Origin: Shigella phage phi25-307
Strand: one strand, 5' to 3'
Length of the DNA stretch: 64,000 nucleotides
Sequence record: MG589383
Shown: in pieces, positions 51,101 to 53,369 of the stretch
How positions within the stretch are numbered: the first letter of the stretch is position 1
Layout: every line of letters begins with the position of its first letter
Translations under genes and position numbers: made by a program
Notes under the pieces: model-generated
Told to the model about the DNA's origin: nothing
The model's database searches: none
Seen by the model: the letters and a program-made list of their open reading frames with translations, nothing else

Positions 51101-51115
51101 AAAGGGCCGAAGCCC
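51101..51115 (-). terminator. Intrinsic terminator (GGGC-UUCG-GCCC plus UUUUUG)
   Basis: Short GC hairpin with UUCG loop directly after the stop of ORF 51116..51541. Confidence 0.5.
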
Positions 51116-51541
51116 TTATTTAAATTTAATTTTCTGAAGTGCATCAATTGCAGCCAAACGCCCTTGTTCACTTTTAACTGTAATGACCACATCGCCTGAT
51201 ACGATCACCGAACCATCAACAAATTCTATAGAGCCTTTTTTGAAATCGACAGATGTATCTGGTTCCGGAACTTCTTCAAAGAATTTAAATTCTGCACCAT
51301 AAAGCAGAATATCACCTTGCATACTATGAATAGTTCGGCCATAATCGCCTACGGCTTCTACAGCAATCACAGAAACGCCGTAACCAATCATCTCTTCCAC
51401 AATAAAATCTTTGGACAATAAAGTAGTATGCAGATTAGTATTAAGACGTTTACCAGTCGTATTAAGAATTCTCAAGAAATTATCTTCCTGTCCTTTGATA
51501 ATACGATATTTCTTACCAACTTCAAAACCTTTAAAAGCCAT
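51116..51541 (-). CDS. Hypothetical protein, 141 aa
   Basis: ORF upstream of gene 39. Confidence 0.55.
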   Translation of the reverse strand: MAFKGFEVGKKYRIIKGQEDNFLRILNTTGKRLNTNLHTTLLSKDFIVEEMIGYGVSVIAVEAVGDYGRTIHSMQGDILLYGAEFKFFEEVPEPDTSVDFKKGSIEFVDGSVIVSGDVVITVKSEQGRLAAIDALQKIKFK

Positions 51542-51543
51542 AA

Positions 51544-51723
51544 TTAACCCTTCTTAAGTAAGTCGTAAAAACCACCGTTCACATGTTTAGGAGCAGAAAC
51601 CCGACGAGTAGACAAACGATGACATTCAGGGCAAACATCGTTTTCTCGTTCAGAAATTCTTTTAATTTTTTCATATTCATGACCACAATCTTCAGATTGG
51701 CATTTATAGTCGTATAACGGCAT
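51544..51723 (-). CDS. Zinc-ribbon protein (FmdB-like CxxC...CxxC), 59 aa (below ORF-track cut-off)
   Basis: Hand translation MPLYDYKCQSEDCGHEYEKIKRISERENDVCPECHRLSTRRVSAPKHVNGGFYDLLKKG; fills the gap between flanking genes with 2-nt spacers. Confidence 0.65.
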   Translation of the reverse strand: MPLYDYKCQSEDCGHEYEKIKRISERENDVCPECHRLSTRRVSAPKHVNGGFYDLLKKG

Positions 51724-51725
51724 TA

Positions 51726-52136
51726 TTATTCCTTAAAATGTGCTTTCAACATTTGATACAAAGACCATGCCTGGTCGTTATTTTCGATAGTAATCGTCAT
51801 CACCGGAAATTCAGACAATTCGTCAAGTTCACCAGAATCTTGCTCTTCGGACGCTTGATATGGATTTTCAACTTCGTCAAAGAACTCTGCTTCATTCGTG
51901 GAGAGCCAGATAAAGTTTTCATCAAGGATATCACCGCCTGTTGCGTATCCAACCGTGCCAGTAGATGTCACAATTTTAGTAGGACGGCCAAGATGGTCAA
52001 CATCTAATACTTTAAATGGTTCCATGCCAAGACGTCGTGCATAAATCCCATTATCAGTGTGGTCTTTAATAAACTCTTCTTGGGCACGTTTATCTATAAA
52101 TTGGTACCATGAGTTAACGCGGAATTTATTAGCCAT
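51726..52136 (-). CDS. Hypothetical acidic protein, 136 aa
   Basis: Start trimmed to the ATG overlapping the upstream stop (TAATG); begins [10 protein letters not shown]. Confidence 0.5.
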
Positions 52137-52363
52137 TAGTAAGTTTCCTTCCAATAAGTTGTACCGTTTTCAGTGATTTCACGGAAGATACCATAGATAG
52201 GCATTTCATCACCGAGTTTTTCGTAAACGTAAATCACTTCTGTGTAGCATAAAAATTCGGTCCAGTTTTTCTGTACAACAACTAAATCAGGATTAAACAG
52301 AACATCTTCAAACTCATCGATGTTTGAATCAGTAGTTACGTTTTTAATGATTTGGCGTTTCAT
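52136..52363 (-). CDS. Hypothetical protein, 75 aa
   Basis: Start trimmed to ATG 52363, preceded by GAGGAG and the promoter at 52392-52420. Confidence 0.5.
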
Positions 52364-52391
52364 AATATTCTCCTCTTGTTTTGATAGGTCT

Positions 52392-52420
52392 ATAGTAACA
52401 CATCTAGAGGAGAAGTAAAC
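52392..52420 (-). promoter_or_regulatory. PeSL-like early promoter cassette (family A)
   Basis: Minus strand GTTTACTTCTCCTCTAGATGTGTTACTATAGACCTATC. Confidence 0.55.
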
Positions 52421-52424
52421 AACT

Positions 52425-52844
52425 TTATGCAAAAGATGCTGGACAATATTTTTTGATTTGGAACTCAGGAACTACCATGAACTGTCCAGCGAAAACGATG
52501 TTATAAAGCTTAACACCATCTTCTACCCAACGGTCGCTAATAAATCCGGCGATTTGCTTAGTTTTCCACGGCGTTCCATCGGTTCCCGCAGCAATAGTGA
52601 ATTCATGGTCTTTTACAACTAAAACAGACCTGCACAGTTTCCATTTGAACGCTTTTTCTTCTGGCTCAATGAATTGGCTTGAGACGTAGCCAATGTTGCC
52701 ATCGGCGTCACGAACTTTAACTTGATGTGGACTAAAGAGTCCACAACTTACAGAAAGAACTTCAACCAACTTCCCGGCAACTTTAGAGCGAGAAGCAACA
52801 GATACATATACGTAATCACCTGTAGAGAGATTTACAATATTCAT
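52425..52844 (-). CDS. Hypothetical protein, 139 aa; paralog of 52854..53309
   Basis: Shares VSVASRSKVAGKLVEV and FISDRWVEDGVKLYNIVFAGQF with its upstream neighbour. Confidence 0.6.
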   Translation of the reverse strand: MNIVNLSTGDYVYVSVASRSKVAGKLVEVLSVSCGLFSPHQVKVRDADGNIGYVSSQFIEPEEKAFKWKLCRSVLVVKDHEFTIAAGTDGTPWKTKQIAGFISDRWVEDGVKLYNIVFAGQFMVVPEFQIKKYCPASFA

Positions 52845-52853
52845 AATAATTCC

Positions 52854-53309
52854 TTAAGCTTTACGAGGAGACACATAGCGAGTGATTTCAGATTCTTTAA
52901 CAACTCGGAAGTCACCTAAGAATACGATATTGTATAACTTTTCACCATCTTCAACCCATTGGTCACTAATGAAGCCACACATAGTATCAGTTTTGCTTGG
53001 ATAACCGTATTCGTCGATGTAATCAAATTCTTTATCGGTTATAAATTCAACGCCTTTGCAAAGGGCCCATTTGAACTGTACATTAGGTTCAGTAGAAGCA
53101 AAATGAGCACTCACATGAGTTTCCAGGAATTTAGGACTTACGTAAGCGTACTGAGTATCCTGACGTCCAAAACTAGGAATGATTCGAACTTTAACTTCTT
53201 TAATACGTCCCATGCCATTTGTGCGAAGTCCGACAACTTCAACCAGACGACCTGCGGCTTTAGACCGGGATGCAGTTGATACACGCTTAATTTCACCAAT
53301 AGTAATCAT
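52854..53309 (-). CDS. Hypothetical protein, 151 aa; paralog of 52425..52844
   Basis: Start trimmed to ATG 53309 (the track start lies inside the -10 element); shares STASRSKAAGRLVEV and FISDQWVEDGEKLYNIVFLGDF with its neighbour. Confidence 0.6.
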   Translation of the reverse strand: MITIGEIKRVSTASRSKAAGRLVEVVGLRTNGMGRIKEVKVRIIPSFGRQDTQYAYVSPKFLETHVSAHFASTEPNVQFKWALCKGVEFITDKEFDYIDEYGYPSKTDTMCGFISDQWVEDGEKLYNIVFLGDFRVVKESEITRYVSPRKA

Positions 53310-53339
53310 AATTTTTCTCTCTTTGTTTAAGTTGAATTC

Positions 53340-53369
53340 ATTATACTCCATCCATCCTTGGATGTAAAC
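53340..53369 (-). promoter_or_regulatory. Early promoter (GTTTAC, 18 nt, TATAAT)
   Basis: Minus strand GTTTACATCCAAGGATGGATGGAGTATAAT. Confidence 0.5.

Follow-up and report, generated by a model that had tools for sequence, protein, structure and literature searches.

The window analyzed here, a 64,000-nucleotide stretch of Shigella phage phi25-307 (MG589383), carries on its minus strand at 51544..51723 an open reading frame of 59 codons plus stop (ATG to TAA) that, judged by its sequence and position, is the ortholog of gene 39.2 of T4-type phages, a known and annotated gene rather than a new one. It is a real gene, well conserved and under purifying selection. The product is a small zinc-ribbon protein (Gp39.2 / NwgI) which, by inference from T4, very probably acts on host GroEL rather than on nucleic acid. 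For the window itself this finding matters little, as the gene is that of a textbook phage and has already been annotated and functionally studied.

Identity and conservation of gene 39.2

The window is DNA of a T4-type myovirus (Straboviridae, Tevenvirinae). Across this region, it shares 98.3% identity with Escherichia phage F2 and ~97% with many RB69-like phages. The original prediction had described a 59-aa ORF at 51544-51723 without giving its strand, and the frame is found exactly there, with a translation (MPLYDYKCQSEDCGHEYEKIKRISERENDVCPECHRLSTRRVSAPKHVNGGFYDLLKKG) that agrees with the text quoted at the time. The protein is 100% identical to RB69 NP_861696.1 (RB69p006, ORF006c) and to the annotated proteins of phages F2 and SF, and 10 substitutions separate it from the 58-aa protein of re-sequenced T4 (MT984581). 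In T4, 39.2 sits between goF/cef and 39.1/39. The slot relative to goF, cef and gene 39 is kept in T4, RB69, RB5, RB32, VR26, Bp7, Moon, ECD7, Muldoon and Miller, and it is retained out to Moonvirus, Krischvirus, Pseudotevenvirus and Muldoonvirus. Copies in AR1, PP01, RB32, RB5, ECD7, VR26 and Bp7 are labelled 39.2 or "similar to T4 gp39.2". Both sequence orthology to the T4 and RB69 genes and a same-strand position near goF/cef and gene 39 were thus found for the window ORF. The primary study of Gp39.2/NwgI is that of Ang & Georgopoulos 2012 (Genetics 190:989), in which the gene first isolated was reportedly RB69 39.2; this would be the exact protein of the window.

The gene had been described as missed by the ORF track. 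It is indeed absent from that list, probably for the simplest of reasons, namely that its 59 aa fall one codon under the default minimum length of 60 aa, but public records of relatives do annotate it. A 60-aa floor thus makes ORF tracks overlook genuine, functional phage genes that are just one codon too short.

The predicted 2-nt spacers are present on each side of 39.2, with the stop of the upstream gene at 51726-51728 and the ATG of the downstream gene at 51539-51541, and both neighbors lie on the same strand as 39.2. A Shine-Dalgarno-like AAGGA was read from the sequence at 51730..51734 (-), 6 nt 5' of the 39.2 ATG, where it overlaps the final codons of the upstream gene (…AAG GAA TAA TA ATG); T4 39.2 has the same arrangement. 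At the other end, a GAAGG within the final codons of 39.2 precedes the ATG of the downstream gene (51116..51541). Such packing is as expected for coupled phage genes, and 39.2 and its neighbors are probably coupled in translation.

The AT-rich region contains many spurious 30-60-aa ORFs. The T4 reference moreover shows a shortened version of 45 aa, and a few database entries (P0007, P0008, P0044 and P0090) are frameshifted, as would be expected of a chance ORF or a decaying pseudogene in an intergenic gap. Conservation nevertheless excludes that explanation, to which we assign practically no probability. The predicted membership in the FmdB-like zinc-ribbon proteins was borne out by profile searches, in which the protein exceeds the curated thresholds of both Pfam PF09723 Zn_ribbon_8 (49.3 bits, E 5e-13; gathering score 34.4) and the NCBIfam model for zinc ribbon proteins of the FmdB family, TIGR02605 (48.0 bits; cut-off 31.3); it also matches PHROG 1076. 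A tblastn search with the protein yields matches in 954 phage records; coverage of the query is 80% or more in 911 of these records, and identity is 99% or more in 133. Together with the ortholog alignments, these matches show that the frame is intact in relatives. Compared with the window, the orthologs of RB5, RB32, Bp7, VR26 and T4 give dN/dS values of 0.03-0.12 by the Nei-Gojobori method, with synonymous sites near saturation. At closer range, 1-4 nucleotide differences distinguish the window gene from those of RB69, F2 and SF, every one of them synonymous, and the RB69 gene is a single synonymous base apart. The Shine-Dalgarno sequence and the tight coupling to the neighbors likewise speak against a chance ORF, and the 45-aa form of T4 stems from legacy sequence differences, since re-sequenced T4 encodes 58 aa.

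The T4 reference record (NC_000866/AF158101) annotates 39.2 as 45 aa (piece L003 2660-2840, minus strand). Relative to re-sequenced T4 (MT984581, piece L015 421-597) it contains an additional T and six substitutions, i.e. 96.4% identity over 221 nt, and these differences hold against about a dozen re-sequenced T4-type records. MT984581 encodes the full 58-aa protein, matching the length given in the literature. To judge from these sequences, the reference version most likely reflects legacy sequencing errors, and the record still holds a shortened 39.2 as a result. An elevated dN/dS of 0.62 for RB32 against the frame-repaired T4 reference raised the question of decay of the T4 copy, an idea that was rejected given the 7 differences over 221 nt from re-sequenced T4.

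In an alternative frame, an overlapping stretch of 35 codons lies at 51579-51686 (-). The four frameshifted database entries run into or out of this frame, by which the 39.2 versions gain a hydrophobic tail (…NVIVCLLVGLLLLSM), and they form single-member clusters. They probably reflect errors in sequencing or assembly and not a second product.

The surrounding minus-strand block

Gene 39.2 belongs to a tight minus-strand block comprising motB-like genes, cef, goF, 39.2 and an ORF005c homolog, located beside topoisomerase gene 39. The upstream neighbor (51726..52136, minus strand) is the ortholog of goF, an mRNA metabolism modulator, with matches to PHROG 622 and goF families; RB69 has it annotated as goF. 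The downstream neighbor (51116..51541, minus strand) is a goF-like homolog of RB69ORF005c and also falls in PHROG 622. These two goF-like genes flanking 39.2 are barely similar and not close paralogs; because their BLASTP similarity is marginal (E 0.026), they are at best very old paralogs.

Between the ORF005c homolog and gene 39, a consensus scan finds a GC-rich hairpin with a trailing T-run (AAGGGCTTCGGCCCTT TTTGCTTT) at 51102..51117 (-) that resembles a terminator. This is a pattern match only, and on the plus strand the same palindrome is likewise scored as a terminator. It is plausible that this predicted intrinsic terminator closes the motB-cef-goF-39.2 block.

Further upstream, the cef ORF (52136-52432, minus strand) has a mechanically assigned TTG start that gives 98 aa. 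Annotated cef orthologs (228 nt, 75 aa) begin at the internal ATG at 52363 (MKRQII…), which fits the boundary of the Pfam T4_Cef domain.

The motB genes differ in content among relatives. Two blocks are missing from the window: ~540 nt after cef (window 52361-52400), which hold motB.2 in RB69 and SF, and ~495 nt before dexA (window 53303-53366), which hold a motB.1-like gene in F2, SF and RB69. Short repeated intergenic sequences lie at both junctions, and the repeats flank the missing blocks in the relatives. The second junction repeat holds a near-consensus promoter-like site (53368..53340, TTTACA-17-TATAAT). The pattern suggests that genes were gained or lost through recombination between repeated, putative early-promoter cassettes.

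Protein anatomy and predicted structure

The original prediction spoke of two CxxC pairs. The second zinc knuckle, C31-P-E-C34 (51622..51633, minus strand, from the translation), is indeed CxxC, but the first, identified from the translation and alignments, is C8-x4-C13 (CQSEDC; 51685..51702, minus strand). In the alignments, this first knuckle carries two extra residues compared with the CxxC of the family consensus. Otherwise, the protein has the features of the FmdB family, namely an MPxYxYxC start and two knuckles ~17-20 residues apart. Across homologs, M1, P2, Y4, Y6, C8 and C34 are invariant and C31 is nearly so. Orthologs share the MPxYxYxC start, an I-S/A-E-R stretch, the second knuckle and an A-P-K/R...G-G-F/Y-Y-D motif, while the metal ligands differ in distant orthologs, with CxxH in ECD7 and Muldoon and CxC in Moon, Miller and F5M1E.

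Following the second knuckle, the motif G50-G-F-Y-D54 (51562..51576, minus strand) leads into a short predicted helix (residues 52-56), as placed by the alignments and AlphaFold2. GGFYD is present in all Straboviridae orthologs and aligns with KGSGFYxTD of cellular FmdB/Ruc proteins. The idea that this tail is a phage-specific GroEL-binding signature was rejected, since cellular family members have the same motif. The protein ends 5 residues past GGFYD, whereas cellular matches have 20-70 further residues. Accordingly, 39.2 lacks the low-complexity, Ser-rich or hydrophilic C-terminal extension usual in cellular members, to which 'SSSS' in the name of the TIGR02605 model refers and which lies outside the scored domain.

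An AlphaFold2 model built with 86 homologs has a mean pLDDT of 79, with four short strands and the C-terminal helix at residues 52-56, and is consistent with a zinc ribbon. The protein would thus be a single-domain zinc ribbon with four Cys ligands, the GGFYD motif and a short C-terminal helix. Foldseek comparison of the model with the PDB gave no match at E <= 0.001. With E >= 0.14 throughout, the best matches are RbpA in RNAP complexes, a YdjO-SigA model and RNAP subunit P. The fold is therefore uninformative beyond 'zinc ribbon'. Single-protein searches of PDB sequences (phmmer) returned only marginal bL31 matches (E >= 0.3), and a family-profile search of PDB sequences detected no solved member of the 39.2 family. 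The top family-profile matches were C2H2 zinc-finger arrays, which were rejected as homologs on account of motif mimicry of 'YKCxECGKxF'.

An 81-aa relative of 39.2 (MPFYDYACKGCGH…GFKDVLRQIKK…) was seen in Serratia phage IME250 (Ackermannviridae; piece L013, ~1201-1446). Its annotation covers just part of it, a 41-aa CDS at 1321-1446, and a gp33-like late-transcription gene adjoins it. It represents a distinct, longer subfamily that is common in Ackermannviridae-like contigs.

Proposed chaperonin modulation and relation to known systems

Folding of the major capsid protein of T4-type phages requires GroEL and the phage cochaperonin Gp31. [quoted passage not shown] The summary in a second paper agrees that T4 Gp39.2 modulates the GroEL/GroES chaperonin (PMC4396842). 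Secondary accounts also credit the gene with rescue of phage growth on groEL/groES mutants. The passages on Gp39.2 in this secondary literature describe no direct physical contact with GroEL.

If the RB69-type protein does the same as T4 Gp39.2, it would shift GroEL to an open state that accepts a cochaperonin, be it host GroES or a phage-encoded one, and chaperonin-dependent folding would then be maintained on hosts with a poorly matched GroEL. The zinc ribbon and the GGFYD tail together may form the interaction surface. Since the T4-type capsid protein needs GroEL and Gp31, the benefit would be robust capsid folding on an ill-matched GroEL. Two observations temper this action on GroEL, which we still consider very probable: the RB69-type protein is 10 positions away from that of T4, and 39.2 lies among modifiers of transcription and RNA (motB, goF and cef), a setting that would suit a regulatory role equally well.

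Such a role was in fact the original prediction, which took the product for a small regulatory or nucleic-acid-binding protein. As an FmdB-like transcriptional regulator, its zinc ribbon would dock on DNA, RNA or RNA polymerase and retune host or phage expression early in infection. PHROG 1076 and RefSeq carry precisely this name, the motB-like, goF and cef neighbors affect transcription or RNA, and the fold comparison, although weak, ranks small zinc-ribbon or sigma-binding proteins first (RbpA, YdjO-SigA and RNAP subunit P). However, every one of these matches has E >= 0.14 and none reaches 0.001, and Pfam and NCBIfam give a generic zinc ribbon alone, with no DNA- or RNAP-binding domain among their matches. 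The name is homology-derived, and a full-text literature search on FmdB found, among the papers listed, no functional study of the family behind 'FmdB-like transcriptional regulator', nor was evidence of DNA or RNA binding by any FmdB-family member found in the literature consulted. The T4 ortholog is reported to modulate GroEL/GroES and Ruc, the only cellular family member for which experimental data were found, is a chaperone, so that both point to chaperones. The regulatory role is thus not upheld, and we consider it unlikely.

In M. tuberculosis, the chaperone Ruc (Rv0991c) is under redox control: its N-terminal zinc ribbon (C8, C11, C29 and C32) coordinates one zinc through cysteine thiols, and oxidation activates the protein (PMC7448276). 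Its disordered, hydrophilic C-terminus is required for activity, and residues 1-49 alone are inactive (PMC7448276). The protein co-purifies with DnaK, its gene is repressed by HrcA together with groES/groEL, and the gene adjoins chaperone genes in many phyla (PMC7448276). A Ruc fragment consisting of residues 1-18, 23-40 and 42-49, rebuilt from primers in PMC7448276, reaches 49.4 bits with PF09723 and 58.4 bits with TIGR02605, both of which also recognize 39.2. Profile-profile comparison (hhalign) of phage 39.2 with cellular Ruc-like proteins gave 99.5% probability and E 1.3e-22 over all 59 residues including GGFY, with the caveat that the cellular proteins had been collected by means of the phage profile. 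No paper linking phage Gp39.2 with Ruc was found in the literature searched, and PMC7448276 itself mentions neither phages nor Pfam.

These shared family models and the profile-profile match, along with the four Cys of the 39.2 protein, would also fit a Ruc-type redox-switched holdase, in which Cys oxidation frees the zinc and yields a chaperone that holds unfolded proteins for DnaK or GroEL. Such a mechanism is unlikely for 39.2, and we rate it marginally below even the regulatory role, because the phage protein comprises the conserved core alone and has no long tail like that of Ruc: in place of a disordered C-terminus, ~6 residues follow GGFY, in a predicted short helix. In addition, distant orthologs have His for Cys (CxxH in ECD7 and Muldoon) or CxC, which does not suggest a conserved thiol switch, and the phenotype reported in the essay noted above (PMC5153855) is allele-specific GroEL modulation and not general holdase activity.

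Both FmdB-family members with experimental data, Gp39.2 and Ruc, are thus reported to act in protein folding, and because they do so, the inherited label 'FmdB-like transcriptional regulator', passed on by homology, is probably misleading. A bolder proposal, which we put forward tentatively and regard as possible but doubtful, is that the whole 'FmdB family' consists of proteins that interact with chaperone machines rather than of regulators, and that 39.2 is a tail-less Ruc-like core whose zinc ribbon and G-G-F-Y would dock on host Hsp60/Hsp70. Were this so, hundreds of phage and bacterial genes annotated as 'FmdB-like transcriptional regulator' would be misnamed, and cellular FmdB members might likewise tune GroEL or DnaK directly.

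Among known systems, the closest is RB69 ORF006c, which has an identical amino-acid sequence and occupies the same slot between goF and gene 39; nothing of substance differs. T4 Gp39.2/NwgI occupies that slot as well and belongs to the same length class of 58-59 aa. Generic zinc ribbons (RNAP subunit P/Rpb12, RbpA, bL31, and the MCM and Sir2 zinc modules) are likewise built from two beta-hairpin knuckles around one metal, but their resemblance to 39.2 is weak and not significant (Foldseek E >= 0.14, phmmer E >= 0.3). Ruc and cellular FmdB proteins have, like 39.2, an MPxYxYxC start and two Cys knuckles ~20 residues apart, followed by G-G/S-G-F-Y, and both Ruc and T4 Gp39.2 are functionally linked to the Hsp60/Hsp70 folding machinery. 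Unlike Ruc, however, 39.2 has no long hydrophilic disordered tail and has a Cx4C first knuckle, and whereas Ruc holds substrates for DnaK, 39.2 is reported to modulate GroEL.
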